Of a DNA stretch of 64,000 nucleotides, positions 2,592 through 49,957 are shown piece by piece. Made by a program: the position numbers and the translations under genes. Source of the stretch: Escherichia phage ECCR664; sequence record OL631257.1; one strand, written 5' to 3'. The stretch's first letter is position 1, and each line of letters begins with the position of its first letter. Below the pieces are notes generated by a model. That model ran no database searches. It was not told the origin of the DNA and saw only the letters and a program-made list of their open reading frames with translations.

Positions 2592-2797
2592 TATAATTTC
2601 CTCAATGGTTCACCCATATAAAGTTTTACAATACGTTCGCCTTCAAGTTCGACGAGCTTTTCTTCATGTTTCTGGAATTCTTTAGCCATATTCTCTTCAA
2701 GAACATCCAGCCAATCTTCTGGACCGACACCATCGTCCCAGCTTTTAAACCATTTAACTATCTTGTTCATTCGCAGCTCCCTGAGCTTGAACCACAA
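2591..2797 (-). CDS. hypothetical protein (68 aa)
   Basis: ORF abutting 2232..2591. Confidence 0.3.
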   Translation of the reverse strand: MWFKLRELRMNKIVKWFKSWDDGVGPEDWLDVLEENMAKEFQKHEEKLVELEGERIVKLYMGEPLRKL

Positions 2798-2799
2798 TC

Positions 2800-3207
2800 A
2801 GAATAACTTGACCCGGAATCACCAGGCCAAGACGATACGTATGAATGATTATAACTTGAAGAGCTTGAAGCATTAACCTGTTTTGTTTTTGGACGAACAA
2901 CTTCTTCCATCATTCCATCACCAATGTATTCCCAACTTTTTCGTGTGTATCAGGAATAGGCATCATACCTTCGCCTGGTTTAACAGCAAATAACTTCTTC
3001 AGTATCGTAAGCATTAATTGTTCCTCGAACAAAACGAACGCCACCGTCATCCCAGCGGATTTCGGCATTAAATTTGACGTCTTCACCATCCATCATGAAT
3101 GAGTGTACGACTACATCATCATAATATCCAAGACCGTATTTCAACGAAACTTCTTGAGCAATCAAAGCACCTAATGTGTTATTAGGTTTAATCCAACGAT
3201 TTAACAT
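2800..3207 (-). CDS. hypothetical protein with Ser-rich C-terminal tail, apparent frameshifts
   Basis: ORF 2980..3207 continues in two other frames over 2800..2979, ending in an SSSSSYNHSYVSSWPGDSGSSYSDCGSSSGSCE tail. Confidence 0.3.
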
Positions 3208-3589: not shown

Positions 3590-4111
3590 TTAGTAACCAT
3601 TATCCTGACGTTCAAAGTTGTGTTGATTTTTCAAGTAGTAAAGTTTAAAGATTTCTTCTGCTGTAAGACCAAGACCTTGGAACATGTTCAGAACGAAATG
3701 CAGAATATCAATCATTTCAAACTTAATTTCAAGCTGGTCTTCAGGAGACAGTTCATCGATACGACGATTTCGATATTCAGCATGTTGTGCTTTCCATGGC
3801 TTCCATACACTGCTGGCGGCTTTTTCACCATTGCTCATACCACCAAGTGAAGTCAGCAGTTCACGGAATTCATCATCAATATAATCTTTCTGATTACGCA
3901 GCCAATCAACAACATCACCAGCAGTAGCCAATTCATCAGGATGTTTGTTATGTTCAGGCTTGTCATTTGCCAGACGAACCTGTAAAGATTTCTGCATATC
4001 AAGCATTACCTGAAGTGGGTCTTTATCTTCGTGAATCAGAGCATTAAAATAAGCTTCTTCTGCTTTATCAACACCAGAAATAAGTTGTGAACATTCGTTA
4101 AAGTGTGCCAT
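3590..4111 (-). CDS. 56: dCTPase/dUTPase (MazG-like), gene 56
   Basis: MAHFNEC ... DPLQVMLDMQ ... ETAGDVV ... CIDDEFRELLTSLG ... MSPEDQLEIKFE ... EEIFKLYYLKN ... RQD.GY matches T4 gp56 as recalled; start taken at the internal ATG with RBS. Confidence 0.85.
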   Translation of the reverse strand: MAHFNECSQLISGVDKAEEAYFNALIHEDKDPLQVMLDMQKSLQVRLANDKPEHNKHPDELATAGDVVDWLRNQKDYIDDEFRELLTSLGGMSNGEKAASSVWKPWKAQHAEYRNRRIDELSPEDQLEIKFEMIDILHFVLNMFQGLGLTAEEIFKLYYLKNQHNFERQDNGY

Positions 4112-4392
4112 TATTTTTCCTTTCAATTCAGTATAAGAGAGTTAATTCTAACATTAATTTTATAAAGCGTAATAAATAATAGGTAACTAAGGAGATATTA
4201 TGTTTAAACTTACATCGTTAATCAACGCTATTAAAGGCAATAAAAGAAAACTGCTATCGCCGCAATAGTTGTAGGTGGCATTATTTCATGGAACTTCGGG
4301 ATTGCACCATTGTTAGTTGCCCATGGTATTATAGTTCCTTCTGTTCCATTGGATACTGTAGTTGATTTGGCCTTTGCTATTATAGGACTTGT

Positions 4393-18756: not shown

Positions 18757-21466
18757 TCAAAAATCGAACATATCGAACAGAGATGCTTTCTTCTCGTAAT
18801 CGAGTTTCGCTGCTGATGTGAATCCTTCAAGTGGTTTAATAAATGTCTTCTCAAGGAGAACCGTGTAGTCCATCCAATGAAGTACGTCGTCTTTAATTAA
18901 ATCTGTGATTTCAGTACCAGAAGGCCATGCGATACATTTATCACCGAATGGGTTTCCTTCACGTAAAGGCAGAACATATACTTTTTCACCTTCTACAACT
19001 TGTGGTGCATCAATATTACCTTTAATAGCCCGGTTATACGTCAGAATTCCACGAATATGGAACGGGCATTTGGGACCAGGGAATCCACCAACGTCATATT
19101 TAGCAATGTTATTCGCAGAAGATACCGACGCAATGCTAATATAATTCAATTGACGGAATTCTTTTTCAAACTCTTTAAAATATTCTTGTAATGATTCTTC
19201 ACCTTCTTGAAGCATACGACGAATACATTCTTTAAGAGCTTTCTGTACCGCTTTAGGAGTTGAAGATTTCTGTGTTTCGAGACCCATGATTTTGAGTTTA
19301 GGCTCAGCGTAACGAGTACCTTCCATATCCCACACGTTTAATGCATAACGTTTCTTACCAGTCCAGAATCCGCCAATACCTTTAGAACCGAGCGGAGGAC
19401 CAGCGATAGCTTCTCGGTCCATGAACATCAAATGTTGCTTATTATTCATGTATTCGCACATTTCACGGAAACCTCTATCAATAGCTGGTTCCATACGTTC
19501 ACGTGCAAACTTATCTAAGAAGTCTACCCAATGGTTGGTATCACGGAATTTAGATTCACCAACCTTATCAATAATTTTATCAGCAGATACGTAAATAGAG
19601 TCTGTATCACCATAAAGAACGAAAGCTTCACCTTCTGTACCACAAACTTCATTCAGATATTCATTAACTTTACGTTCAATCCACTGTAAAGCCATTTGAC
19701 CAAATGTTGTGATTGCAGTAGCATTACGCAAATCGTAATAACGGAACCAAACGTTGCCAAGTGCACCATAAAGTGAGTTGATAAGCAATTTACGGTTAAT
19801 TTGTGCAGTCATACCTGCAACTTCAGTACGTTGAGCTCTAAACAACATTTCATTAAGAGATTTAGCAGACAACTTTTTAATCTTTTCTTTAATCTCATCA
19901 GTGAAGTCGAAACGATAATCAACATCTAATGGTTCGTCAACAGAAAGATTAGGATTATGCAATGCCTCTTTAATTATTTCACCATTACGTTGAGCTGCAA
20001 GCATGTAACCTTTATGTTCTTTACGTTGATTAAAGACCTTAGTGATTTCAGTTGGAACTACACCGTCACGGTCTTTATAATACATCATGCCGTTAGGAGA
20101 GCAACTGTACACATCAGAAGGACGTTCAGCAACAGCGTTAATATAATCATGCAGTGGAGCTACTTTAAACGTTCCTGCTATTGTTTCTGGGCTAATATTC
20201 ACTTGGCGAATAATACTTGGATACAGAGATGTAAGGTCGAAACTCATTACATATTTGTATCGATTTGGAATAGGTTCCTTAACAAAAGCGCCAGGATAAG
20301 GTTGAACCGGGTGAGAACGACCTTGTGGAATCACCTTGTTTTGTTCTTTAAGGCTATTAAAAATAATAGCATCCCATGTTTTAATTGGGCTAAACACAGA
20401 TTGAATCTGTATCTTAGCATAATAACCCATGTCCAAACTCAAGTTGATGAACTGACGCTTAGCATCAATTTGCAATACACGATACACGTCGATAATGTTA
20501 TAAGAAATATATCGTTGGTGATTGCTTTCACGAAGCTTAGAAATAGGACCGTCATATTTCAGTTTACCGACATTCAATTCAAATTCTGAAATGTAATCCA
20601 GAGAATACGACGGTTGATTGGTAAAGAGAATTTTTGTAAAGGTCAATGTAATCAAGAACAGAGATACCGAACAATGTAATGATTTCACGAGAACCATACA
20701 TGTTTTCGATAACTTTAACACGAGTTTTACGATGTGGTGATAAACGTTTCGCAGTAGATTCGCCAAAAATATTTTTGATTCGGTTATACACATATGGAAT
20801 ATCAAATGACTCAACGTTCCATCCAGTCAAAATGACAGGAGTTTTCTGTTGCCAGAAGTTGAGATATTCCATCAACAATTCTTTTTCGTTATCGAACGGC
20901 ATATAAATGATTTTATCAATAATTTCGGATGGAACTTCATCACCACCTTGTTCTTGAAGCTTAGCTGCAATTTCGATAGACCATTCTTCTACATTACCAT
21001 ATGGAGAATTCAATAGATCAAATACGTAGAACCTGTCGTCAATTGAGTCATAATGGGTGATAGCATCAATCGGATGTTTTGCTTGTGACGGCTCAGGAAA
21101 CCCATCCGGAGATGTTACTTCGATGTCGAAGTTAGCCACACGAATTTTTGTATGGACGTATTTGATTTCATAGTTATAAGTGTCAGACAAATACGCTAAT
21201 TTGAAATCGTCCATGCCAAGTGCTTCAAGTCCGATATCTTCCATGCGTTTAATCCATTGGGAGGCATCACGCATATTAGCGAACAACTTACGAGTACATG
21301 GCTTACCGTAGATATCGAAATATTTCGTAGCCTGACTTTCCGGACAATGAGCAAACAGTGATGGTTTATATTCTACTTCACGAGTACGTTCACGGCCATT
21401 AGAATCGATGTAACGTTCAAAAATTGAATCACCAATCTGTTCAACCGTTAAGTAAAATTCTTTCAT
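18757..21466 (-). CDS. 43: DNA polymerase, gene 43 (family B); one apparent frameshift
   Basis: N-terminal 295-aa ORF (MKEFYLTVEQIGD...) and C-terminal ORF (YGDTDS, ...KKRYALNVWDMEG...) match T4 gp43 as recalled. Junction is a one-base loss in the T5 run at 20630..20634; restoring it gives ...LDYIDLYKKILFTNQPSYSL... Confidence 0.95.
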
Positions 21467-37108: not shown

Positions 37109-37367
37109 TTAAAATATTCTCGTAGTTGGTCAAAGCCACCGATCGAAGTTCCATCAGGAGCAAACACTTGAGGCATAGTCAATCCGACTTGTGATTCACG
37201 TCCAAGCTTAACAAGAAGCTCAGCAATTTTCTCATCATCGAACACACCTTTTCTGGCATAACATTAATGAATTCAAATGGCTGTTTCTTAACAGTCAGCA
37301 GTCGTTTCGCATTGTCGCAATAAATGCATTTATGAATAGTAGAGTCGTACCCGTACACTTTAAACAT
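37107..37367 (-). CDS. nrdC: thioredoxin/glutaredoxin NrdC; apparent frameshift
   Basis: MFKVYGYDS.IHKC.YCDNAKRLLTVKKQPFEFIN.MPEK matches T4 NrdC as recalled; frame is lost after about 45 aa. Confidence 0.75.
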
Positions 37368-37773
37368 TATTTTTCCTTTCATCGATTAAATATGCAACGC
37401 CAAATACAATACATGTAATAAAACCTGTGATACAGATAGAAACCAACAACACTGTACCAAAGAACCAAATCAAGTTATCTTTAGTAGTTTGTTTGATATC
37501 CATCTCACGAATTTCTATAGCTATCGTATCACCTTTATTCAGAAGCGTATAAAACGACGGTGATACATGCCTGTCAAAAACTCGACCTTGTTCATCTTTA
37601 TAGACTGCAATAAATTCTAATTTAGAATATTTTCCTGTAGATTGACCTGAAATTAATTCCACTACCTCCACAGGAATTACTTTAGTTTCCATGTAAGTAT
37701 TCTGGCTGTTCCAAATGAACGGAATAATGGCAAAAACTAAAGCTGCGATAAAACAACGAAGGCTATATCTCAT
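37360..37773 (-). CDS. membrane protein (137 aa)
   Basis: N-terminal and C-terminal hydrophobic segments. Confidence 0.35.
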   Translation of the reverse strand: MRYSLRCFIAALVFAIIPFIWNSQNTYMETKVIPVEVVELISGQSTGKYSKLEFIAVYKDEQGRVFDRHVSPSFYTLLNKGDTIAIEIREMDIKQTTKDNLIWFFGTVLLVSICITGFITCIVFGVAYLIDERKNNV

Positions 37774-38078
37774 TATAATGTTCTCTCAAATTTGTGGAAG
37801 CATTTACGGCATTTCAATTTCAAGTTATCAGTGGTCCAGTTAACCAGTTGGACTTGGATAGTTCCACATTCTGGACATGGATGTTTTGCTGCCGATTTGG
37901 CAGCATTTTCACGTCGTTCAACCATTTTCATTATTTCGTTCCATGCCGGAGGAACGAACTCTTCTTCACCGTGGATTTTATCTCGCTGAACAAATTCAAT
38001 CTTTGAACTATCGTCAATAAACTTAACCAAGCCATGATTAGTGCTCATATCAATATCCTCTAGAAGACGTAGTTTCAT
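37773..38078 (-). CDS. zinc-ribbon protein (101 aa)
   Basis: CPECG ... CRKC pair of Cys-x2-Cys. Confidence 0.35.
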   Translation of the reverse strand: MKLRLLEDIDMSTNHGLVKFIDDSSKIEFVQRDKIHGEEEFVPPAWNEIMKMVERRENAAKSAAKHPCPECGTIQVQLVNWTTDNLKLKCRKCFHKFERTL

Positions 38079-39027
38079 TATAACACCTCAATGGCATTTC
38101 GTAAACCATCCGCTTTCGCATTCAGAACTTTTAACGATTTAGTTTGTTCTGCAATCTGGGCTTCGACTTCTTTCAGACGAGATTTGAGGTACTCACGTTC
38201 TTCTCTTAAATTATCAACTTTTTCTACTTTAGGTTCTTTAATAGGCTTAAGTTTATACATATTAGGGTTCTTCAGTTTAATTTGAATTCGAGAACTGAAT
38301 AACATTGAACCGTTATCTTCAGTTTCGCTGAACATTTCAACAACATCCATAGTCTGTAACATCATACGAAGTTTATAAGACAGCGAACGAACGGTTTTGT
38401 TGTGCTTATTAATTTCTTCAGCTTTCATGGTACCGAGATTACGTGAGTAGTAATAAGGAACCTGGATATCAATTGATAATGATGCGTTACCATTACCGGT
38501 TGGTTTGAATACTGCAGTAACCCAATCTTTAACATGAACTTTATTTGTACGACCATCACCGCCAGTGAATAATTTACGAGAATGTTTAAAAAGCATATTC
38601 ACTTGGTTATTGAATTCACAAGCAAATTTATCAGCAAATTTAGTTTCAGGAATTGTAGATAACCAATCAGCTAAATGAGTCTTTTAACATCGTTAATAAT
38701 AGTAAATTCAACCAAATCGGTTTTAGATGTCACAGATTTAATAAAGCTCGGTTTCATAAAGTTTTTAATGTTATCGCGAGCTACAGTAGAAGATAATAAA
38801 CGAGAACGTTTGAACCATTGAAGCAGCGTCCCTAATGAATGAGAATATGCATTTTGAGTATCTTTACAGATATGATTTTCTTGGCCGGTATATGTACCAA
38901 AATCGCGAAGAATACCACTTACTACATCTCGGTGTGGAACATCAAATCCTAATGAACCAGAAGCACGTTGGGCATGAACATTAGCGATAAGACCTGCAAA
39001 ATAATCAATGTAATGTGAACGTGTCAT
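38078..39027 (-). CDS. hypothetical protein with C-terminal coiled coil; apparent frameshift
   Basis: ORFs 38671..39027 and 38078..38602 join through a shift near 38610; heptad-rich C-terminus. Confidence 0.3.
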
Positions 39028-39055
39028 AATATTTTCCTCTCGTTAAGATAGATTC

Positions 39056-39085
39056 ATTATACTCTAACCATCCTTGGTTGTAAAC
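39056..39085 (-). promoter_or_regulatory. early-type promoter
   Basis: Minus strand GTTTAC - spacer containing CCAAGGATGG - TATAAT. Confidence 0.45.
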
Positions 39086-39089
39086 TGAT

Positions 39090-40047
39090 TTATGATTTTA
39101 ATGCATTCATTGCGTTAAAAAGTTTAGAGTACTGCAACTGGAGATTGGTAACTACTTGTTGAGCATCACGAAGCTTAGCTTGTGCTTTGTCAAGTTCAAC
39201 AGACAGTTGGTCCATAGTGGCCTTGATTTGATTGTAATGGTAATCTTCGGCCGGAAGAAGGTCATTAGAAACATTTAGTTTTACTGCAGACAGTTTGCAC
39301 ACATTTGGCAAACCTTTAAACATTGATTTACCCGAAGTAGAATAAGCACTTAAGACTTCGGCCTGTTCAATTGGGGTCCCAGTAAGCGATGCTTCAAACA
39401 ATGCATTTTCCTTTTAAGATTTTGATAGTATTCAGAGTCTTTGTGCCACCATGGCGCAGGAACCTTTTACCAATAGATACACGAGCCTGGATAGCGATAT
39501 GGCCCTTATTCTTAATAGGGTTGATAATATTAAGCTCACGAGAATAAATCGCTTTAATCTGGTGGATATTATCACCTAAAACTTCCAACGCTTGGTGGAA
39601 TACACGAGCAACGTTATCATTCTTAGGTTTATACGTAAGAGTGAACTCATTCTCACTGATAACCATGATTTCTAACTTATCGTAAGTATATTTCAAATGT
39701 TTCATGTTAATTGCTTGAGGACGAATACGAGAAGCAATGGCCATCAGATTGTTAAGGTTATTTCGGAACTGTTTAGCGAAATATTGTCCTTCACCGCCGA
39801 TACAAAAATTACGAAGTTTCTGTTTGGCTAATAAACGGCTGAACTCACCATTTTTAATGAACTCTTTAACGGGTGTGTTAGTAACGCATTCAAATTGAGT
39901 AAACTTACGAGAAGTAATCCCATAATATGAACAGATTTCCTCAATCTCTTCAGGAGTCTTTACAGGCATACGGATAGGATTAGGTCCTGGAGTATATGCG
40001 TTCGAGGTAAATTCTTTGATAAGTTCTCTACGTGTAATAAAAGCCAT
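39090..40047 (-). CDS. hypothetical protein with C-terminal coiled coil; apparent frameshift
   Basis: ORFs 39394..40047 and 39090..39401 in tandem with an 8-nt overlap. Confidence 0.3.
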
Positions 40048-40073
40048 TTTATATTCCTCATGTTGAAAAATTT

Positions 40074-40103
40074 ATTATACTCCAACCATCCTTGGTTGTA
40101 CAT
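40074..40103 (-). promoter_or_regulatory. early-type promoter
   Basis: Minus strand ATGTAC - 18 nt containing CCAAGGATGG - TATAAT. Confidence 0.45.
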
Positions 40104-41098
40104 CATTCCTTAAGAAGTTTTACTACTTGAATAAGATTAGCTCGTTCTGTTTTATTTTTACCATTTAAGCCTGCTAATCGTGAGATTTCATCGTCAGTCT
40201 GTTGAATAGTTACATTAAGTTCGTTAATCAAAGCTTCAAAGTATTTGATTTGCTCAGCATGTTTTGATTCAAATTTCTGAACCGGAATAACGTCTTGGTT
40301 TAGTTCGTCAATAAGGTCTTTAAGAGCATCTTCTTGGTTGATATCGTATTCAACTTCTTTTATTTCTTCAACTAGCTCGTCTTTATATCTAACGTCTTTT
40401 AGTCCTGGTGCTGGTCCTGAAATCTCTTCTTTAAGAGTACAAACATACCCAATACGGTATCCAGTGTCGTCTCGCTTGATATCAACTTCGTCGATAAATC
40501 CACAATGTTTGAGACCAGAGCCGATTAGGTCAAAATATCCTTGACGACGTCCTTCAAACGTTACACGAACTACTAAGACAGTTTTGCCTGCAATCTTTTG
40601 AAGCTCACATTTATAAAAGTCAGTTGAACCTGAATAACGTGGATGAGTTTTAAAGTTCATCTGTCGATCTAGGCCCATTTGTAAACGTGCTGTTACGGCC
40701 ATAAAACGTGTTTGGTTCTCGTTAAGATGAGCAACAATCCATTTCAAAGGCATTTTACACTGTTCACGACCGAACAAATCAGTACGTCCTAGATTACGCA
40801 GGATGTTGTTAGAGTTAATCATCGACAGAACGTTAAGTTTATTCAGCGCGCTGAAGATTCCATCAGCCATTGATTTTCCGTAGCCTTTACACGCTTTAAT
40901 AAGCGCTCGCGGTAGATTAGTATAGATTTCAGACGGCATATGAAAATCAAATTTACTAACCAGTAATTGATGAACTTGGATAGCAATTCGTTCATAATTA
41001 AGCGCTCTGCGATCATTATGGTCTTTAAACCACACTTTAATCTGTGAAGCACATAAACCGTTAATTTCATGTTTTATCGCATCAGATGTAATGCTCAT
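40103..41098 (-). CDS. hypothetical protein (331 aa) with acidic coiled-coil C-terminus
   Basis: ORF; no catalytic motif recognised. Confidence 0.35.
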   Translation of the reverse strand: MSITSDAIKHEINGLCASQIKVWFKDHNDRRALNYERIAIQVHQLLVSKFDFHMPSEIYTNLPRALIKACKGYGKSMADGIFSALNKLNVLSMINSNNILRNLGRTDLFGREQCKMPLKWIVAHLNENQTRFMAVTARLQMGLDRQMNFKTHPRYSGSTDFYKCELQKIAGKTVLVVRVTFEGRRQGYFDLIGSGLKHCGFIDEVDIKRDDTGYRIGYVCTLKEEISGPAPGLKDVRYKDELVEEIKEVEYDINQEDALKDLIDELNQDVIPVQKFESKHAEQIKYFEALINELNVTIQQTDDEISRLAGLNGKNKTERANLIQVVKLLKE

Positions 41099-41160
41099 AA
41101 CTATTTCCTCAGATTGAATTGGAACTCAAAACCATTATAACCCGTCCTTGGGTAAAGCGT

Positions 41161-41373
41161 TTATGCGTGAACCGTCTTTAAACGTTCTTCAAATTTCCGA
41201 AGAGTACTAATACGTTCTGCTTTCTGTTTTGTATAGTTTGCAATACGTTCTGAAGTGAGAGCGTATCGTTCGTTTACTGTTTCTTTCATGAAGTCAGGGA
41301 TTTCACGAGAAGCTTTAATTTCATCAAACTTATCGAGTACTGCCTGGTCTTCAGCGATTAAATTTTCGTACAT
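41161..41373 (-). CDS. hypothetical coiled-coil protein (70 aa)
   Basis: ORF only. Confidence 0.3.
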   Translation of the reverse strand: MYENLIAEDQAVLDKFDEIKASREIPDFMKETVNERYALTSERIANYTKQKAERISTLRKFEERLKTVHA

Positions 41374-41434
41374 CTCGATATCTTTCTTAATGAAGTCGAT
41401 ATCTTCCTGTGTTACTTTGGATAAACGAGATGCT

Positions 41435-41686
41435 TTATCCTTTTGTACTGCTCGTTAGTTTCACGAGACCAGAATAATGTACGTTTTTGTTAGTGTTTTT
41501 GTAGACTTCCACAATTCCAACTGAATCGATGATAACAATCCAATTCCAGCGAGATTTGAAAATCTGACCTCCATCCACGGTAATCTCATTACCATAAGCA
41601 ACGTCATTAAAGAACTTGCTTTGTGCTTCAGATTTAAATTTACCGTCGTTATAATTTACCAGGTTGAAAATATCTTTAGCGTTCAT
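41435..41686 (-). CDS. hypothetical protein (83 aa)
   Basis: ORF downstream of an early-type promoter. Confidence 0.35.
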   Translation of the reverse strand: MNAKDIFNLVNYNDGKFKSEAQSKFFNDVAYGNEITVDGGQIFKSRWNWIVIIDSVGIVEVYKNTNKNVHYSGLVKLTSSTKG

Positions 41687-41712
41687 GTTTTACCTCCAGT
41701 AGTTGATAGGTC

Positions 41713-41742
41713 TATAATAACATAATCATAGACCTTGTAAAC
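41713..41742 (-). promoter_or_regulatory. T4 early-type promoter
   Basis: Minus strand GTTTAC - 17 nt - TATTAT with the palindrome AGGTCTAT/ATAGACCT. Confidence 0.5.
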
Positions 41743-41744
41743 AA

Positions 41745-42056
41745 CTAAAAGAAACTTTTTCGGTATTTTTCCACTGAACCAAACCGACTTCGGGATTTTT
41801 GTAATTTTTCAGATTTAAGTTTCTCTTCCTGTTCTTTCTTATATACACCCTTGTCGTACTGGAGCATCTCTATGGCATTCTTTTGCAAACGATCTAAGGT
41901 AATTAAGGCTTTAGTTTTTCCTTTCAAGGAAGAGTCCTGGCGAACCTCCTCGCTATATTGCATTGTAGAACTAACCATACGATGAGCATAGAGTTCGACT
42001 GCTGCTTTGATTTTTGCATAAAATCCATAACATATCCTCTTTGATTTGTACATCAT
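41745..42056 (-). CDS. hypothetical basic protein (103 aa)
   Basis: ORF only. Confidence 0.3.
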   Translation of the reverse strand: MMYKSKRICYGFYAKIKAAVELYAHRMVSSTMQYSEEVRQDSSLKGKTKALITLDRLQKNAIEMLQYDKGVYKKEQEEKLKSEKLQKSRSRFGSVEKYRKSFF

Positions 42057-42166
42057 TATTTTTAAATATTTCTATGCCCTCAGTAGGTTCCTGGTGTCCT
42101 TCTTTGAGGTAAGCCATATGATTATTCATCTTTATGGCTTTTGTTACCTCAGAACTTCCTATAAGC

Positions 42167-43145
42167 TTATTTCAGTAAAGTTACTTCGGAGATTTCCTCC
42201 CAACCATCTTTATCAGTTGAAATAAAATCTGCTACATAAAGAGCCGTACGTAATGATACATTGCGAAGACGAGATACGTTAGCCTTCATCCAGGACAATG
42301 CTTTGTACGTTTCAGCATCAGTCAGACCACGTTTCTGCATCATGTCAGTAGATAATATTACATCTTCAACTCGAACCATAATCTCTTCATTAGAGTGTAC
42401 TCCAAGGTCGAGATACACTGAACGAGATACTAAAGCTTGAAGGTGTGGAGCAAGTTTCGAACCACGTTCTAACTCTTTATCGATATCAACGTTTGTAATG
42501 AAAACGATAGTACCTTCAAACTCAAATTCTTTATCAATACCCTTATCATCAAGATAAGATGACGCAGTGCTCCAACAAACTTTGCGTTTATCTCCGGTAT
42601 CTAATGCTGCTTTAAGAAGGTTCAAGATATCCATATCAGAGAATACATCAACATCGTCGATTAAGAGAACGCTGTCTGCATCACGGTTGAGCCAAAGTTG
42701 TTCGTAAAGGCCAATACCAGAGATTTTACCATTAATGCTTTTGTATTTGATGAAGCCATTATCATTAGCACTATTAAGTGCTTTATCCAGAGAATACGTC
42801 TTACCAATACCGGCTGCACCTGAAATAATGAGTGAACGAATTTTGCCATCGATAATGCCATTCGTCATCATGTTCATTACTTTAAAGCGTTTGTTGATGC
42901 GAGTTTTCATATCTTCAGTGCTTTCAACAACTGCAACTGGTGATGTCTCAACTCCTTCCATTACGATGTCTGATTTGAAGACCCATACTCCACGTTCAGA
43001 ACCATCAATCATAACGAAAATTTTACCATCACCTAAGTGGGAACATTCAGGATTAAGCTTTGCTGGGAACCAGGTCTTTGTGGCGACATAAGAACCAGAG
43101 ATTTCGTTATTACGATAGATACCTTTTGATTTGAACGTTGAACAT
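42167..43145 (-). CDS. AAA+/P-loop ATPase; apparent frameshift near the N-terminus
   Basis: ORF 42167..43012 with Walker A GAAGIGKTY and Walker B VLLIDDVD; N-terminal extension from ATG 43145 in another frame. Confidence 0.55.
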
Positions 43146-43180
43146 TTTATTCTCCAATTTACTCATTTCGTTTCGATAGG

Positions 43181-43212
43181 TCTATAATAACATATCCTAA
43201 AAGCATGTACAC
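43181..43212 (-). promoter_or_regulatory. promoter with MotA-box-like element (possible middle promoter)
   Basis: Minus strand GTGTAC-ATGCTTTTA ... TATTAT; ATGCTTTTA resembles the T4 MotA box placed about 12 nt before the -10. Confidence 0.4.
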
Positions 43213-43230
43213 TACTTTTTAAAAATATTT

Positions 43231-43257
43231 TAACCCCTAAAGGGACCCGAAGGTCCC
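43231..43257 (-). terminator. rho-independent terminator
   Basis: Hairpin GGGACC-CGAA-GGTCCC at 43242..43257 followed on the minus strand by UUUAGGGGUU; near-identical element at 61647..61671. Confidence 0.55.
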
Positions 43258-43262
43258 CACAT

Positions 43263-43544
43263 TTACTTATCGCACTTAGCAACATAATTAGGCATATCAC
43301 AGAATACGGAGCGAGTAACTACTCGACCCTTTGACCATGCTTCAGTTGCTTGTCCGGCAGTGCTATTAATATAGCTTGATTTGATATTCTCAATACCCTG
43401 AGAATGTGATGCATTTACCGAACCGTTGGAAGGCCCAGAAGACTGGTTACCACCAGCTCCTGCACTACCGCTGGCTGCACCCGTGGTAGCACCAACAGAG
43501 AACGCCATCATTACTGCGAATAAACCAATTACTAATTTTTTCAT
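43263..43544 (-). CDS. secreted Gly/Ser-rich small protein
   Basis: 93 aa; signal peptide MKKLVIGLFAVMMAFSVGA; low-complexity GAASGSAGAGGNQSSGPSNGS; late promoter upstream. Confidence 0.4.
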   Translation of the reverse strand: MKKLVIGLFAVMMAFSVGATTGAASGSAGAGGNQSSGPSNGSVNASHSQGIENIKSSYINSTAGQATEAWSKGRVVTRSVFCDMPNYVAKCDK

Positions 43545-43572
43545 ATTTACCTCAAGTGAATGGTTATTTATC

Positions 43573-43580
43573 TATTTATA
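43573..43580 (-). promoter_or_regulatory. T4-type late promoter (TATAAATA)
   Basis: Plus tatttata about 29 nt upstream of the ATG at 43544. Confidence 0.5.
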
Positions 43581-43639
43581 GTAAGAATTATGATTTTCGA
43601 GATAGACTTGCTCAAGGAAATCATCCCAGAAACTCATAT

Positions 43640-44560
43640 CTACTTTTGTTGCATACCGTTCTTAGCGGCTTGTTCTGATGCTTGTTCAACTTGGTCAACG
43701 ATATCTTCTAGGAATTCTTGTACAGTTTTAAACGTATGTTTACCAAGCTTAACATCAAGAATAAATGGAGCATCCTGAAGCGGGTAAACCAGGTCACCGG
43801 TTTTGTAAATTTCCAATAATTGAAGTCCACCACGACATGCATGACTCAATGCTTTCCAGTCAATACCTTCGTTGGCTTCCGCCTTACGAGCACGTTCACC
43901 ATAGTTCTCTTCCAGTTTAACCAGGATGGCATTGAACTCTTTATTGGTTAACGTGTCTTGGAATTTACGGTCTAATAGATTATAGAATGTTTGCTTACCT
44001 GTTTTCTCGTTTTCGGTTTCAACCCATGAAGCAAATTCACCTACAGGCAGAACATTCTTCATATGTGATAAACGAATTACCGCACCATTATCAAAGTATT
44101 GTCCCCATTCATTAGAACGTTTAAGGGCTTGACGAAGAACAGCCAGTCGAGAACCCTTGACACCATATTTAGAAGCTTGCTTACGGACATACCCTAAATA
44201 AGATTTCATGTTAGTGGTATAGAAACGAGACCTGTTATCTTGAATATACTTCCATACATCAGGCAAATCAGATTTAACTACTAGACTTGGTGGGGTGTGA
44301 AGCATATCTAATGCGACGGTTTCACCATCTGCAGCTAGTTTAAAGAAATATTTGAGACTATACAACTCGTGGTCCACGTCGTCTTTTGTGTTCTTAGAAG
44401 CAGTGTTGTTAGTGTTCTTGCTCATGTGTTCTTTAACGTTACCGGTCAAGATATCACGAGCATGAGGGACATAAATTTCTTTAAAATCGACGTCAGATTC
44501 AGGAGTAGACGTTCCATAAAGGTGGCTACCAAAGTAGCCTTTCATAATTGTTTTCATCAT
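43640..44560 (-). CDS. Pol-beta-superfamily nucleotidyltransferase (ANT/MNT-like N-terminal domain plus helical C-terminal domain)
   Basis: 306 aa; KGYFGSHLYGTSTPESDVDFKEIYVP fits the G-S-x(9-13)-D-x-D signature; start overlaps the stop of the upstream membrane protein (ATGA). Confidence 0.55.
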   Translation of the reverse strand: MMKTIMKGYFGSHLYGTSTPESDVDFKEIYVPHARDILTGNVKEHMSKNTNNTASKNTKDDVDHELYSLKYFFKLAADGETVALDMLHTPPSLVVKSDLPDVWKYIQDNRSRFYTTNMKSYLGYVRKQASKYGVKGSRLAVLRQALKRSNEWGQYFDNGAVIRLSHMKNVLPVGEFASWVETENEKTGKQTFYNLLDRKFQDTLTNKEFNAILVKLEENYGERARKAEANEGIDWKALSHACRGGLQLLEIYKTGDLVYPLQDAPFILDVKLGKHTFKTVQEFLEDIVDQVEQASEQAAKNGMQQK

Positions 44561-45030
44561 TTAGCCTTATATTCAAGAGTAGGACAGACTTTTTCTTTAC
44601 GAGCTTTAAGGTATTCACCTATTAATGATTTCTTACGTTCAATAGGCTCAAGTCCATTTTTAATTCGTTCTTGGTTTTGTGCAATGAGCTCAATTTCTTT
44701 ATAATATTTTCTGTCGTTATATTTGTCTAATAACCAAGATGGACCAATTACCGCCCCGACAGCAATAAGAACCATTACTGATATTGTTAAAATGCCTATA
44801 CCAATTGAAGCAGGAACTAATGTCCATAAACTACTAAAGACAAAGAATTTAGTTAAAATTTCTTGGCCAATGATTGCGGCACCTGCTAAAGTTGCAAATC
44901 CAACAATTGAAACAGCCAATACCGGAATAAACGTTTTCCAAAAATAAGCACATAATGTTTTCGGACGATTCCACGTACTATTGAACGTGGCATAAATTTT
45001 AAAGTGCCAAGAGTTTTCATTGATAATCAT
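44557..45030 (-). CDS. membrane protein, translationally coupled to the nucleotidyltransferase
   Basis: 157 aa; three predicted TM segments (FIPVLAVSIVGFATLAGAAIIG, FVFSSLWTLVPASIGIGILTISVMVLIAVGAVIG). Confidence 0.45.
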   Translation of the reverse strand: MIINENSWHFKIYATFNSTWNRPKTLCAYFWKTFIPVLAVSIVGFATLAGAAIIGQEILTKFFVFSSLWTLVPASIGIGILTISVMVLIAVGAVIGPSWLLDKYNDRKYYKEIELIAQNQERIKNGLEPIERKKSLIGEYLKARKEKVCPTLEYKAK

Positions 45031-45182
45031 AATAATTCCTTATTTCAAAGTCGGGATAATAGAATCGAGATAAGCTTTAAGAGCAACTGCTTCATCTTTG
45101 TCTAATGTAATGATATGTTGACGAAGGTCATCAATTTGGCGAATAACTACAACATCACCGTCTTCATAAGAAGGATTAACGC

Positions 45183-45581
45183 TCAGGACTGTTGTATAGT
45201 CAGGGTTGTCCTGATTTGTAATAAAAGCATTACGACATTTAGCCCATTGAAGTTTGGCCTTTTGGCTGTTTCAGATTCCATGAATTCTTTCACTTTAGCG
45301 ACGAATGTTTTCCAATTATTAATAGAAAAACATTCGTCTTCTGTTTCGATATTAACCCCACTATAAAGTCCGTGATAAAAACGAACTTGAAGGTCTTCAT
45401 CAATGTTAATTACAGATGCATGGCCTGGTGGATTGAGTTTCAAAATCTTGTCCAGTTCCATAGGAAGAATAGTAACAGCATCATCTTCTTGCGTCAGAAC
45501 GTAAGCATAACCGCGTTTTTCAATACATAAATCACCGAACAACTCTGTTGTTTCAATTACAGTTTTCATATTATTCACCAA
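45183..45581 (-). CDS. hypothetical protein (132 aa)
   Basis: ORF only. Confidence 0.3.
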   Translation of the reverse strand: MVNNMKTVIETTELFGDLCIEKRGYAYVLTQEDDAVTILPMELDKILKLNPPGHASVINIDEDLQVRFYHGLYSGVNIETEDECFSINNWKTFVAKVKEFMESETAKRPNFNGLNVVMLLLQIRTTLTIQQS

Positions 45582-45589
45582 TTAAAGTT

Positions 45590-45857
45590 TCAACAAAATT
45601 CACCAAAGCATTCTGGCAAGCGTCAACCTGATTTTCATAAAAGTCTACGTTATCATTTACCGCATGATAAGCTACATCATTCAAATCTGAATCGGCTTCA
45701 CGTAAGTCATGGATAAGGTCCATCAATTTATTAGCTTGTTCACGGGTCATTTTACCATACTCGTTTCAATAAGATTCACTATGCCGTTTACCATGTTATA
45801 AGTAAACATCGGATAATTGTATTGTACTACAACATAAGCGATAAGCAAAAGTTTCAT
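45590..45857 (-). CDS. small hypothetical protein, apparent frameshift
   Basis: Not in ORF track; MKLLLIAYVVVQYNYPMF ... MTREQANKLMDLIHDLREADSDLNDVAYHAVNDNVDFYENQVDACQNALVNFVETLIGE. Confidence 0.3.
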
Positions 45858-45885
45858 TTTGTTCTCCGTTCGTTTTGATAGGACT

Positions 45886-45915
45886 ACTATAACATAGTCC
45901 TATCAAGTTGTAAAC
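45886..45915 (-). promoter_or_regulatory. T4 early-type promoter
   Basis: Minus strand GTTTAC - 17 nt - TTATAGT with palindrome GATAGGACT/AGTCCTATC. Confidence 0.5.
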
Positions 45916-46151
45916 TACCGATTGTGTTTTAAATGTTGATAAAGTTCTTCAACTTGTTTAGGGTCCAAAACAATTAAGTCATTTTCTTGACGAAGATAAA
46001 TCCATCCCTTATCCCCAGGGCCATTTTTACAAAACATCACCGTCGTCATATCGTCATCTTCAGCGCTTTCAGGTAAAAGTTCAAGTACACCGTCTTCAGA
46101 TTTTCCAGTATAATCGTAAAGCATAATATCCTCACATAATCTCGTTAACAT
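45915..46151 (-). CDS. hypothetical acidic protein (78 aa)
   Basis: ORF only. Confidence 0.3.
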   Translation of the reverse strand: MLTRLCEDIMLYDYTGKSEDGVLELLPESAEDDDMTTVMFCKNGPGDKGWIYLRQENDLIVLDPKQVEELYQHLKHNR

Positions 46152-46311
46152 ACATTTGCAATTCGGTGTGCGTATCAGCCATCTTTTTCATAGCTCTGTT
46201 AATGTCGATGTCTCCATCTTCGCAACCATGAGCATTTTCCCAATCAGATACCGCATTAGCGTACTCTTCAATCAAAAACATTAACTTAGAAATTTTTTCT
46301 TTACGTGTCAT
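46132..46311 (-). CDS. hypothetical protein (about 59 aa)
   Basis: ORF 46132..46389; likely start MTRKEKISKL at 46311 below the promoter. Confidence 0.3.
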   Translation of the reverse strand: MTRKEKISKLMFLIEEYANAVSDWENAHGCEDGDIDINRAMKKMADTHTELQMYVNEIM

Positions 46312-46337
46312 AATGTTCTCCTCTAGTAAGTAAAGAC

Positions 46338-46367
46338 TACTATAACACAACCTGAGGAAAAGTAAAC
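46338..46367 (-). promoter_or_regulatory. T4 early-type promoter
   Basis: Minus strand GTTTAC - 17 nt - TTATAGT, immediately after the rI terminator. Confidence 0.5.
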
Positions 46368-46378
46368 TGCTAAATGCC

Positions 46379-46404
46379 AAAAGCCCCAACCTTTCGGAAG
46401 GGGC
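46379..46404 (-). terminator. rho-independent terminator downstream of rI
   Basis: Hairpin GCCCC..CCTTTCGGAAGG..GGGGC at 46383..46404 followed on the minus strand by UUUU; identical element at 62340..62367. Confidence 0.6.
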
Positions 46405-46411
46405 TATTAAA

Positions 46412-46713
46412 TTAGATAGATGTAGGCTCTAATTTTATTTTCATGAACTCAGCAAATTGTCTGGCGGTTTTTATGCCTTGTTCATGACATTCAAATGCAT
46501 CATCACAGGGACTATTTTTGTAATGCTTTGCCATATACTTATAGAATTTTTCAGAATTCTCGACATTTTGAATTTCAAACAAAGTATATACGTTTTTAAT
46601 CCCTGATTCCATAAAGTTATCAAAATATGGGTCGATATGTGCAGTACCAACGATAGGAGTTGTTGCTGCAAAAACCCCAGCATCGCTATGACAGCTATCG
46701 CTCTTAAGGCCAT
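46412..46713 (-). CDS. rI: lysis-inhibition regulator RI (membrane-anchored periplasmic); apparent frameshift
   Basis: N-terminal frame MALRAIAVIAMLG and C-terminal frame ...KFYKYMAKHYKNSPCDDAFECHEQG...EFMKIKLE match T4 RI as recalled. Confidence 0.7.
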
Positions 46714-46725
46714 ATAGGCCTCCTG

Positions 46726-46938
46726 TTAATTTTGGCCAGTATTTATTTTTCGCCTTTGGACGGCCTTAACATCTGTGAGGTATTTTTCCAGCTTGCGCTT
46801 GCGTGTATAATCAGCTTTAGAACCAGTTTGACGGATATCCTCATTTAAATGAGAAATAGAATGTCCTAATTCTCTTCGGATTTCATCCAATTGGGTTACA
46901 GTAAGATTACGAAGTTGTCTTTCGTTTAATTGCTGCAT
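46726..46938 (-). CDS. hypothetical protein (rI.1 position)
   Basis: 70 aa ORF with a late-promoter motif upstream. Confidence 0.35.
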
Positions 46939-46962
46939 ATATACCTCTTGGTTAGATATTAG

Positions 46963-46970
46963 TATTTATA
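46963..46970 (-). promoter_or_regulatory. T4-type late promoter (TATAAATA)
   Basis: Plus tatttata about 25 nt upstream of the ATG at 46938; overlaps the tk stop. Confidence 0.5.
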
Positions 46971-47545
46971 ACAACCCTGTCAAATCATTCCAATGCTTCC
47001 GGCATAATGACACGTATCTATCAGTATCACCAATTTCAATTTGACTGCCATCTGTAATTGGAAGTCCGTCTTCCGTGACTCTAGCTACCATTGTGGCCTT
47101 TTACCACAATGACAGACACCTTTAAGTTCAACAAGCTTATCGGCAATAGCCATTAATGCTTGAGAACCTTCAAATAGATTACCTTTAAAATCTGTTCGTA
47201 GTCCATATGCCATTACTGGCACATTGTATACGTCAACAATACGACTAAGTTGATACACCTTTTCAGTAGTTAAGAACTGAGCTTCGTCAACAAATACACA
47301 ATGAATATCCTTTGTGCTGCAGCCCATTTATAGAATTCAAAGATGTCCATGTCTTTTGTAATTATATTGGCATCCTGACGAATACCAATACGAGAGACTA
47401 TTTCACCTTTTGAATCACGAGTATCAATAGCCGGTTTAAGAACTAATACACCCATGCCACGTTCTTTATAGTTATGTGCGGCAGTAAGTAATGAAGCAGA
47501 CTTACCAGCATTCATAGCGGCATATGTAAAAATTAAACTAGCCAT
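46966..47545 (-). CDS. tk: thymidine kinase; two apparent frameshifts
   Basis: Walker [13 protein letters not shown]; [13 protein letters not shown]; CHCGK ... Zn ribbon. One junction verified as a one-base loss in an A-run (caaaggat versus expected caaaaggat). Confidence 0.85.
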
Positions 47546-47554
47546 AAGAGTCCC

Positions 47555-47737
47555 TTATAGTGAATTCACGTAGTCAATGAGTTCTTGTTCTTTCCTGTCA
47601 AATGATTCCATCAATGCGTGATATTCTTCGTCCGTCAAAGGAGCATATTCATCGTACGCATTGGTGGCTGCTTGTTCATCCAATAGGTCATGGATAAGTT
47701 CGAACAGTTTAGCTTTCTCTTCTTTAGTCAATTTCAT
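47555..47737 (-). CDS. hypothetical acidic protein (60 aa)
   Basis: ORF only. Confidence 0.3.
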   Translation of the reverse strand: MKLTKEEKAKLFELIHDLLDEQAATNAYDEYAPLTDEEYHALMESFDRKEQELIDYVNSL

Positions 47738-47946
47738 TTAGGTTCACCTTCTTTAACGAAATCTGGGTAAGGGTAAAATCCTGAGTAAAACCCTTCACCT
47801 TTATGATTACTACAACCTTTGTTCGAACAGTAACACCAATAATCAAAATCACAAGCCATTTCGTCATTGCATAAAGCAAAAACTACAGGCCATTCGCATT
47901 TTTCGCATTTAGCGCCTGTAAGAATTTTTGTTTGGCTCATAACCAT
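47734..47946 (-). CDS. Cys-rich small protein (putative Zn-binding)
   Basis: 70 aa; CEKCEW ... CNDEMACDFDYWCYCSNKGC. Confidence 0.35.
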   Translation of the reverse strand: MVMSQTKILTGAKCEKCEWPVVFALCNDEMACDFDYWCYCSNKGCSNHKGEGFYSGFYPYPDFVKEGEPK

Positions 47947-48164
47947 GTCACCTTTAAGCAGTATTCTTCTACATGCTGTTTACGACCTTTCTTATCAATA
48001 AAGGTATATTCAACGAATGTTCCAATGTAGTCTTTATCTACATCATGTGGACTATTAATTGGACATTTAGTACGACAAATGCGTTCCCATTGACGAATAA
48101 TTACTGCCTTATTCTTTGGGTCGTATGGATGTGGATAATGTATATTCATAATAATGGTTCCCAA
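47937..48164 (-). CDS. hypothetical protein (75 aa)
   Basis: ORF only. Confidence 0.3.
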   Translation of the reverse strand: MGTIIMNIHYPHPYDPKNKAVIIRQWERICRTKCPINSPHDVDKDYIGTFVEYTFIDKKGRKQHVEEYCLKVTWL

Positions 48165-48643
48165 TCAACAATCACAATTTCTAGTTTAGTGGAATACGTA
48201 TCTAAAATCTCTTCGATGATATCCCAGTTTCCGCCACCGATACCAGCACCAATTCTTGGCATATAAATTAAAGGCTTTGTTATCTTATTCTTTCCGAATT
48301 TATTTAATTCTATTATACAATTCATTAAAGCAGAGTACTCAAAATTAGGTCCAGGCTCAAACTGTGTATAAAGATTAAAGCAATAAGCTTTATGGGTCTT
48401 AAAATATTTTTCATAAACCGAATAAGTCCCGAGTTTAGATTCGTCTCCGAATTCGGTTTGAAGTTTATCGGCTTCCAGAATTTTTGGATAAGCCTTTGCT
48501 AATTGACCTGCTACACCAGCGCCCATTGTATGAAAACAATTGCACCCATGAGCAATATTATTACCTTTAGAAAACAGGGCGACAATATCGCCCTTGATAT
48601 AGTTTTTAATCACTTGCTGCAAGTCCTCTAGTATAAGAGTCAA
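48146..48643 (-). CDS. macro-domain protein (ADP-ribose binding/hydrolase fold)
   Basis: 165 aa; IAHGCNCFHTMGAGVAGQLAKAYP and IGAGIGGGNWD resemble macrodomain Gly-rich loops; T4 tk.4 position. Confidence 0.5.
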   Translation of the reverse strand: MTLILEDLQQVIKNYIKGDIVALFSKGNNIAHGCNCFHTMGAGVAGQLAKAYPKILEADKLQTEFGDESKLGTYSVYEKYFKTHKAYCFNLYTQFEPGPNFEYSALMNCIIELNKFGKNKITKPLIYMPRIGAGIGGGNWDIIEEILDTYSTKLEIVIVDWEPLL

Positions 48644-48953
48644 CTAGACGGTCCACCATAGAATTGCATGCTGCCTTATCTTTAGGTTCCGCCACCGAGC
48701 ATTCTAATATTTGCCATTTTTTATAGTATCTTTTAATTAAGGTAGACGCCTTGAACCTACTAGACGCCCCATCTTTTTCTCCGTCTTTATACGCATATAA
48801 CAATTTTTGTGAAAAATCTACTTTACACTCTTGACTTTTACCACAATAATCAGACGCCGTTCTGTTTGTATACTCCGTTACATCAGTATATGTAGTATTA
48901 GCAAGAGCGTTAAATGAAACCAAGCCAACTATTAAAGCTAACATTTTGGTCAT
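48606..48953 (-). CDS. secreted protein (Vs position)
   Basis: 115 aa; signal peptide MTKMLALIVGLVSFNALA; same length as T4 Vs; residue similarity not confirmed. Confidence 0.4.
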   Translation of the reverse strand: MTKMLALIVGLVSFNALANTTYTDVTEYTNRTASDYCGKSQECKVDFSQKLLYAYKDGEKDGASSRFKASTLIKRYYKKWQILECSVAEPKDKAACNSMVDRLVDSYTRGLAASD

Positions 48954-49492
48954 TCTTTTATTTCCAGTAGTTTATTTGATTTAAGGTAATTAGCCTTTTC
49001 TAGGACTTCAGAAGCATATTTACTTCCAGCACTTGTCTTCCATCCCGCATTATATGAGGATATAGCTTTTCTTATATCCCCGTTATGTATATTTAACCAA
49101 TAAGAAAATTCGATATAAGCCCATCTGGCTGAATTAGACCGCTTAGATAGCATTTTCTTAATTTGGGCATCAGTCATATTATAACCAAGCTGGTTAATTC
49201 TTGCCCTCATTGTTGGTAGATAGTTTTGGAACATTCCATACGCATGGTGACCTTTCTTATCTTTAAGATTAATACCTGCGGATGATTCTTGCCATAGTAT
49301 TGCGGCCATTATGTATCCAAGTCCTTTCTTATGCATATTTTCATGCGTTTTAAATTTTCCGTCCTTAGAAAACTGTTCCCCAAACTGATAAGCATAATTC
49401 AAGTTATCGAGTTGGACATTACTAAAAGTATGCTCGGAGCTATGTGCTGATAACGAAAGAGCAAATAGACCAGCGAGTAGTGCTTTTCTCAT
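48950..49492 (-). CDS. periplasmic lytic-transglycosylase-like (SLT-domain) protein
   Basis: 180 aa; signal peptide; AAILWQESS ... AYGMFQ resembles the SLT catalytic E-S and GLMQ motifs; T4 vs.1 position. Confidence 0.5.
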   Translation of the reverse strand: MRKALLAGLFALSLSAHSSEHTFSNVQLDNLNYAYQFGEQFSKDGKFKTHENMHKKGLGYIMAAILWQESSAGINLKDKKGHHAYGMFQNYLPTMRARINQLGYNMTDAQIKKMLSKRSNSARWAYIEFSYWLNIHNGDIRKAISSYNAGWKTSAGSKYASEVLEKANYLKSNKLLEIKE

Positions 49493-49500
49493 GTTTACCT

Positions 49501-49957
49501 CTAGATTTTAATCACTGCTTTAGAAGCTTTTCCTGGTAGTCGTTTACTGTTAATAATAGCCATTCTGCATTGAAGAGTCTTCATTTTGAATGCTGGATTT
49601 TCGCGACAGACTGTAAGTCCTAACCAAAGATTTCCGTCAGTTATTTCTAAACGGCCTGGGCGATATTCGACACCTTCGACAAAATCTTCATCAACATCTG
49701 GACGTGCCGGCATTGATAAAAATTCTGCAACTTCTTTAACATGATTTTTACTTTATGAAATAATTCAAAACGTAATTCTCATCTATTTCTCTCTGGATGG
49801 CACGATCTAAGAGATGTTGAGAATACTTGATATGAAAGCCTGGTAGTCCAAGAGACTTTGCAGCATCTTTTATACCGGCATTTATTTTGCGGAACTCCGT
49901 TTCAAAGATTCGACGGAGTTTATTACGGCGGATAAAAACGTCAGAATTGATAGTCAT
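49501..49957 (-). CDS. regB: endoribonuclease RegB; apparent frameshift
   Basis: N fragment MTIN..VFIRRNKLRR.FE.EFR.IN ... KYSQHLLDRAIQREIDE and C fragment RPD.DEDF.GVEYRPGRLEITDGNLWLG.TVC ... CRMAIINS.RLPGKASKAVIK match T4 RegB as recalled. Confidence 0.8.

Follow-up and report, generated by a model that had tools for sequence, protein, structure and literature searches.

The DNA analyzed here (the window) is a stretch of 64,000 nucleotides from Escherichia phage ECCR664 (sequence record OL631257.1), a Mosigvirus, i.e., an RB69/JS09-like T4-type phage. Its subject is two neighboring genes, one encoding a membrane protein and the other a nucleotidyltransferase (NTase) of the Pol-beta superfamily, which an initial annotation had described as translationally coupled and compared with two-gene NTase modules. 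By its sequence, the NTase is the conserved ortholog of T4 nrdC.11 and a member of the RlaP family (PF10127), with a true length of 329 amino acids. The reading that we favor, and consider on balance to be probable, is that NrdC.11 is an RNA-repair NTase and that the membrane protein is a syntenic but nonobligate neighbor. The NTase gene is a known, annotated, and conserved member of the T4 gene repertoire, and its family now has a biochemical function.

NrdC.11 and the RlaP family

Direct reading of the sequence confirmed both open reading frames (ORFs) and the overlap between them. The features of the pair are as follows.

44557..45030 (-), membrane protein gene, 157 amino acids, stop codon TGA (ORF reading)
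43640..44560 (-), nrdC.11 ortholog encoding the RlaP-family NTase, 306 amino acids as read (ORF reading, Pfam, and PHROG)
44557..44560 (-), ATGA stop/start overlap of the membrane protein gene and the NTase gene (direct sequence reading)
44372..44530 (-), catalytic core of the Pol-beta fold, codons 11 to 63, with G11-S12, D23-V-D25, and D63 (57-sequence alignment; strands 24 to 31 and 62 to 68 of the structural model)

A Shine-Dalgarno-like AAGG lies a few bases upstream of the ATGA overlap, and a second in-frame ATG is available to the NTase at 44555..44557. Either start is used in the annotations of relatives, giving 328 or 329 amino acids. The region of the pair is 95 to 99% identical to many Mosigvirus genomes, where the first gene is listed as a membrane protein or a hypothetical protein (RB69ORF104c) and the second as nrdC.11 or nucleotidyltransferase.

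The NTase is 77% identical to T4 NrdC.11 (NP_049709), and its gene is located between mobD.1 and nrdC.10, as in T4. It matches PF10127/RlaP in Pfam over residues 7 to 140 (E value of 2.8e-12; 47.3 bits against a gathering cutoff of 23) and phrog_388 with an E value of 6.8e-115, while no other NTase family of Pfam (ANT, MNT, etc.) was matched. PF10127 is precomputed for all but one of the homologs listed in database tables. The hG[GS] motif and the three acidic Pol-beta active-site residues of the RlaP family are present, and the GS...D.D signature recognized in the initial annotation is intact: a 57-sequence alignment that extends down to 30 to 37% identity shows no variation at G11, S12, D23, D25, and D63, and all five are kept in the window. 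Orthologs of nrdC.11 with an NTase domain were described in T4 and five T4-like genomes by Nolan et al. in 2006 (PMC1524935), and a T4 deletion spanning nrdC.11 to mobD.3 is viable (PMC9825161). In GenBank records of Mosigvirus and Tequatrovirus, nrdC.11 orthologs are very often mislabeled “thioredoxin,” probably an error propagated from the name nrdC.11, as the true NrdC is a thioredoxin. Likewise, T4 mobD.4 is labeled [quoted passage not shown]

Two Pseudomonas members of the RlaP family, PfRlaP and PaRlaP, were characterized in a preprint of December 2025 (PMC12776372). RlaP adds one or two nucleoside monophosphates (NMPs) to the 3'-OH of RNA, with a preference for damaged RNA, and is required for the recovery of aminoacylation by tRNA that is missing nucleotides (PMC12776372). 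It was proposed to be an antidote to “smart” ribotoxins, e.g., RloC, which excise a nucleotide after the cut (PMC12776372). The same study assigns T4 NrdC.11 to the RlaP family, in sequence cluster 5, and the assayed enzymes to cluster 1a. The initial annotation had named, as the finding that would speak against its own proposal, a conserved T4 ortholog with an established and unrelated function. This is largely what was found, in that the gene is nrdC.11 and the function attributed to its family comes, by analogy, from the Pseudomonas members.

If NrdC.11 acts as these enzymes do, it would extend broken RNA at its 3'-OH by one or two nucleotides in a template-independent manner. It would serve T4-type tRNA repair alongside polynucleotide kinase/phosphatase and RNA ligase 1, replacing the nucleotides excised by host RloC-type anticodon nucleases, and would thus be a counter-defense enzyme. 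Both the RNA substrate and the repair role of NrdC.11 are putative and follow from the likeness to PfRlaP and PaRlaP, which extends to the Pfam match, the three acidic residues, the predicted domain order, and, in distant members of the clade, the presence of ligase neighbors. It is plausible that NrdC.11 counters host defenses through RNA repair, and the literature already contains this proposal; the anti-defense role suggested in the initial annotation survives in this form.

The genomic setting of distant relatives points in the same direction. Our NTase-anchored sample consists of 80 viral loci, 35 with at least 57% identity and 45 with at most 46% identity. In 7 of the 45 distant loci, a PF09511 RNA ligase gene lies just upstream of the NTase gene (loci L129/131/132 and L120/121/122/126), adjacent to it in 3 and about 0.5 kb off in 4, and in 2 others (L110 and L114) a PF09414 ligase gene lies downstream. 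In locus L093, the NTase gene directly follows a P-loop kinase gene, with a metallophosphoesterase gene just upstream of the kinase gene. Because distant NrdC.11-type loci adjoin RNA ligases or a kinase in this way, they support an RNA-repair setting for the NrdC.11 clade.

The structural models are compatible with this assignment. The AlphaFold model of the 329-residue NTase (predicted local distance difference test [pLDDT] of 87.3) shows an NTase domain followed by a helical domain and a terminal helix, and the predicted order of elements agrees with the secondary-structure layout of PfRlaP, in whose crystal structure the last helix folds back against the NTase domain. No PfRlaP entry was found among the PDB sequences or folds searched. 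When PDB sequences were searched, neither the NTase by itself nor the 57-sequence profile gave a meaningful match, and Foldseek returned weak matches to kanamycin NTase/ANT(4') (best E value of 8.8e-4; template modeling scores [TM-scores] of 0.28 to 0.33), the nearest solved folds being ANT/KNTase-like and HalB-like NTases. Because the PDB fold matches are weak, we describe the modeled fold as that of a Pol-beta NTase of generic type with a helical domain after it and base the family assignment on sequence.

Four points weigh against an RNA-repair NTase with an incidental neighbor. (i) NMP addition has been shown only for the two Pseudomonas enzymes, which belong to RlaP cluster 1a and not to cluster 5, and the source of the biochemistry is a preprint (PMC12776372). 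(ii) Genes for an RNA ligase or a kinase are absent from the 4 kb around the NTase gene, both in the window and in its T-even-like relatives. (iii) The Pfam alignment stops at residue 140; because the C-terminal half is clade specific, its beta-meander (residues 177 to 201) included, the substrate could differ. (iv) In unrelated phages, members of the membrane protein family are repeatedly encoded next to RNA-repair genes, which leaves room for a functional link (see below).

A sequencing artifact in the nrdC.11 reading frame

The 306 amino acids first assigned to the NTase reflect a deletion in a run of A residues; its close relatives all have 328 or 329 amino acids. Two features of the window account for the difference.

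43644..43647 (-), A4 run that is A5 in all relatives, a single-base deletion truncating the NTase ORF
43572..43643 (-), frame-shifted remainder of nrdC.11, 23 codons (VDMSFWDDFLEQVYLENHNSYYK) plus a stop codon (shifted-frame translation compared with MZ234025, JS09, SA79RD, and T4)

The closest relative, MZ234025, has one more A in the run than the window. The 23 C-terminal residues of the remainder are conserved in T4 and form the C-terminal helix (residues 309 to 328) in the model of the 329-residue protein. The best 120 database homologs of the NTase are 324 to 329 amino acids long, with 328 or 329 in all but one, and a 329-residue protein (P0067) is 100% identical to the window NTase over its 306 amino acids. 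Compared with T4 NrdC.11, the window copy has the same catalytic residues and differs in being read as 306 amino acids by way of the homopolymer deletion.

The same type of difference recurs in the surrounding sequence. Between 41.4 and 47.3 kb, the window differs from three concordant relatives by 13 single-base deletions in homopolymers (at 41440, 41483, 41755, 41765, 41795, 42010, 43233, 43643, 45259, 46378, 46669, 47098, and 47310). Single-base deletions specific to the window span 37248..49766, nearly all of them in runs of T, A, or C, with those outside the 41.4- to 47.3-kb interval judged against JS09 alone. This pattern is the signature of homopolymer under-calling, because of which many ORFs of the window are falsely split or shortened. 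The DNA polymerase gene, gene 43 (18757..21466, -), is read as two overlapping ORFs in different frames, of which 20579..21466 encodes the exonuclease domain and 18757..20814 the polymerase domain. The deletions at 47098 and 47310 cut the thymidine kinase gene (47085..47545, -) into two ORFs, the one at 45259 shortens mobD.1 (45183..45581), and nrdC.10 (42167..43012) is read as 281 amino acids, where about 326 are expected. Because a viable phage cannot have a broken essential polymerase gene, these frameshifts are sequencing or assembly errors and not biology. The true length of the NTase is 329 amino acids, and the 306-residue ORF is a sequencing artifact rather than a natural truncation.

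The membrane protein and its association with nrdC.11

The membrane protein matches phrog_944 (RB69ORF104c type) with an E value of 3.5e-52 and has no match in Pfam, NCBIfam, or PADLOC. An exhaustive profile search yielded 2,498 representatives at 50% identity, nearly all of them full length (130 to 180 amino acids). Because only 4 matches, all in metagenome-assembled genomes, were found among 185,579 bacterial and archaeal species (one representative genome each), the PHROG 944 family is essentially restricted to phages. No RNA-repair genes are located beside these 4 bacterial homologs. Within the family, C27, C149, and P150 are invariant and Ser7, Trp8, His9, Leu26, and Tyr29 are nearly so. 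The three invariant residues are common to the window protein, RB69ORF104c, ICP1 ORF169, and PAK_P1 gp153c. The conserved positions fall in two motifs, an N-terminal MIIxxNSWH...LCxYFW, predicted to be cytoplasmic, and a C-terminal KARKxKxCP.

The protein had been described as having three transmembrane (TM) segments. The AlphaFold model (pLDDT of 89.5) instead predicts two membrane helices, at residues 26 to 62 and 68 to 94, and two cytoplasmic helices, at residues 98 to 124 and 136 to 148, and the hydropathy profile agrees with this topology. In the model, a short N-terminal strand can pair with a C-terminal strand only; because such pairing places both ends on the same side of the membrane, two TM segments are predicted rather than three. 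A PDB profile search with the membrane protein family matched generic membrane helices only.

The two genes do not form a conserved unit. In the 35 related NTase loci (at least 57% identity), the membrane protein gene lies no more than 3 kb upstream of the NTase gene in 34, yet the two are directly adjacent in only 13 and are separated by 0.4 to 2.5 kb of inserted genes in 21. Among the 45 loci with at most 46% identity, the membrane protein gene is present in 1. In T4, the mobD homing endonuclease gene occupies the slot of the membrane protein gene immediately upstream of nrdC.11, and a scan of the 19-kb T4 locus found no homolog of the membrane protein gene there; by naming convention, the name RB69ORF104c denotes an ORF without a T4 match (PMC1524935). 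In Acinetobacter phage PhaR5, an additional gene separates the two, and unrelated genes lie upstream of the NTase gene in Aeromonas phage AS-zj, Vibrio phage PC-Liy1, Erythrobacter phage XM05, and a Klebsiella Pseudotevenvirus.

The distribution seen from the side of the membrane protein is similar. Loci were collected with a 10-sequence subset of the membrane protein alignment, and the sample was widened by a degenerate DNA pattern; the full 41-sequence alignment was too diverse for a locus search. An NTase gene lies within 4 kb in 11 of 47 viral loci anchored on the membrane protein gene, all of them T-even-like, and MobD.1 is encoded upstream in all nine of the 11 that were checked. PAK_P1-like phages and ICP1 have the membrane protein gene without an nrdC.11-type NTase gene. 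Pseudomonas phages account for 93 records with the membrane protein versus at most 31 with the NTase (they fall outside the top ten for the NTase, the last entry of which is 31), while Klebsiella phages account for 295 NTase records versus 140 membrane protein records. Each gene is widespread alone.

The ATGA overlap is not distinctive. In a crude ORF call of the window, 10 of the 117 same-strand neighbor pairs overlap by exactly 4 nucleotides and 29 overlap by any length. Nor is the stop/start overlap conserved wherever both genes occur, adjacency being found in 13 of the 34 loci that have both. We conclude that the two genes are adjacent because their order in a variable region was inherited, with vertical synteny among the T4-like phages of enterobacteria and Acinetobacter, and that they constitute neither a mobile nor an obligate two-gene system. 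From this we infer that the NTase and the membrane protein are functionally independent. The AAA ATPase encoded by nrdC.10 was considered as the true conserved partner of the NTase and was rejected, as it shows the same clade-limited synteny.

Two variant copies of the membrane protein gene were observed. In phage T2 (NC_054931.1, positions 2462..2957), the family matches in two pieces in different frames, which reflects either a frameshifted gene or an error in the record; an intact nrdC.11 lies directly downstream of this broken copy. A Yersinia phage TG1-like locus has a shortened gene (4001..4369) matching residues 1 to 93 only, and here nrdC.10 and the membrane protein gene occur without nrdC.11 between them.

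Among the alternatives to a mere neighbor, the one that survives best is that the membrane protein works together with the RNA-repair enzymes of phages, perhaps as a membrane tether, sensor, or regulator, and that the pair is a functional unit, albeit a separable one. Genes of the family immediately precede those of three distinct RNA-repair enzymes, each in a separate lineage: RlaP in the T-even-like phages, an Rnl1-type ligase together with an AAA_33 P-loop kinase in PAK_P1 (which is not T4-like and has a metallophosphoesterase gene upstream), and a PF09414/PHA02142 ligase in Aeromonas T4-like phages. Four further loci (L039, L043, L045, and L191) have a ligase gene within 4 kb of the membrane protein gene, and in L093 the membrane protein gene lies about 2.6 kb upstream of the run of metallophosphoesterase, kinase, and NTase genes. 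Overall, ligase matches were obtained in 13 of 95 membrane protein gene loci, compared with none of 32 chance-match control loci. However, the positive loci represent few lineages and the counts ignore relatedness. In about 38 of the 48 loci of a second sample there is no RNA-repair gene nearby, and the family also neighbors genes for ThyX, NAMPT/Prs, DHFR, nucleases, and proteins without assignment. T4 keeps nrdC.11 while its 19-kb locus lacks the membrane protein gene, and the genes inserted between the pair in most related loci likewise argue against a working unit. We therefore regard this explanation as unlikely, though as the strongest of the competitors. More specifically, the PHROG 944 family might be a membrane-anchored component of phage RNA-repair cassettes (with RlaP, ligases, or kinase/phosphoesterase), for example one that localizes or gates tRNA repair, which we consider doubtful; for any functional tie of the family to RNA repair, our estimate lies between doubtful and unlikely. 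The recurrent link of the family with RNA-repair genes, a weak one, is the only new element of our analysis.

The PAK_P1 locus itself (L010; NC_015294.2, 77692-83090) encodes, in order, an HD hydrolase, the metallophosphoesterase, the membrane protein, the Rnl1-type ligase, and the AAA_33 kinase, an apparent RNA-repair cassette. A ribose-phosphate pyrophosphokinase gene follows the cassette, and the related contigs L043 and L045 add a gene for NAMPT; because of these genes, RNA-repair and NAD-salvage genes can be said to cluster.

Far less probable is a Hailong-like or toxin-antitoxin-like pair, in which a membrane effector is held in check by the product of the NTase and acts in exclusion or abortive infection. 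The Hailong operon consists of two genes, for the transmembrane protein HalA and the NTase HalB, and HalA is toxic without HalB (review, PMC13434031). The window pair likewise combines a membrane protein with an NTase, and HalB came up as the top structural match of the window NTase. In contrast, no PDB chain, those of HalA and HalB among them, is similar in sequence to either window protein; the membrane protein resembles no solved structure, again including HalA; and the NTase sequence falls in PF10127. The window genes are phage encoded, do not form a bacterial defense operon, and are not co-inherited, since each is found alone (the membrane protein gene in PAK_P1-like phages, ICP1, and many others; the NTase gene in T4 and many others).

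Slightly less credible still is an NTase of the ANT type, acting on small molecules, or an antitoxin of the MNT type, which would adenylylate its partner toxin. The initial description of the NTase as ANT/MNT-like finds some agreement in the fold comparison: the best PDB matches by Foldseek were the kanamycin NTase/ANT(4') structures, followed at lower rank by LinB, AAD(9), and an MNT chain, and the likeness consists of the minimal fold of a Pol-beta NTase with a helical domain after it. No family-level match in sequence was found. The TM-scores of the ANT/KNTase matches are low, Pfam gave no ANT or MNT match, the NCBIfam model of MntA scored 13 bits against a cutoff of 60, and neither flanking gene has a HEPN match in Pfam that could supply the toxin partner. 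In addition, the window NTase has 329 amino acids, compared with about 250 in the ANT chains and 147 in the MNT chain listed.

Finally, a CBASS-like combination of a CD-NTase signaling enzyme and a membrane effector has in its favor only the general arrangement of an NTase beside a membrane protein and is effectively refuted: neither protein was matched by PADLOC, the membrane protein has no recognizable nucleotide-sensing domain, and no cGAS/CD-NTase is among the structural matches listed for the NTase. The toxin-antitoxin or cyclic-nucleotide module first envisaged for the pair is not supported: the NMP addition to RNA 3' ends by characterized RlaP members belongs to neither category.

Locus context and implications

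Two further features bear on the transcription of the pair.

45886..45914 (-), closest upstream sigma-70/T4-early-like promoter match, TTTACA-17-TATAGT with TG (consensus scan only)
43232..43247 (-), terminator-like hairpin 3' of the 93-codon gene downstream of nrdC.11

The consensus scan found no promoter-like site immediately 5' of the membrane protein gene, and the closest one lies upstream of mobD.1. The hairpin is probably the end of a transcription unit, and a terminator is annotated at the equivalent position in phage SA79RD. Because of the promoter-like site upstream of mobD.1 and the hairpin after the next downstream gene, the pair is probably transcribed within a longer unit together with mobD.1. 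The membrane protein gene and nrdC.11 can be described as two accessory genes, adjacent and probably cotranscribed, that belong to the variable nrdC-tk region of this Mosigvirus.

The gene between nrdC.11 and nrdC.10 (43263..43544, -) encodes a 93-residue Gly/Ser/Ala-rich protein with a signal-peptide-like N terminus, which belongs to PHROG 2243 and has a weak YbgS-like match. Relative to JS09, it shows in-frame length differences of 3 and 6 nucleotides at 43463..43477, and in T2 a gene annotated as an ADP-ribosylase occupies its slot. A T4 late-promoter motif, TATAAATA, is present at 43573..43580, overlapping the true end of nrdC.11. On the other side of the pair, within 45915..46151 (-), a segment at about 45933..46052 does not align with JS09 or SA79RD, which suggests a small gene replacement in this variable region around mobD.

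The PHROG 944 membrane protein family is large, uncharacterized, and sometimes linked to RNA repair, which makes it a reasonable target for experiments. The idea of repair by NrdC.11 has already been published for the RlaP family, to which the window adds no new evidence. If it is true, NrdC.11 would complete the classic tRNA-repair counter-defense of T4, and this role would explain why the gene has been retained across T4-like phages.

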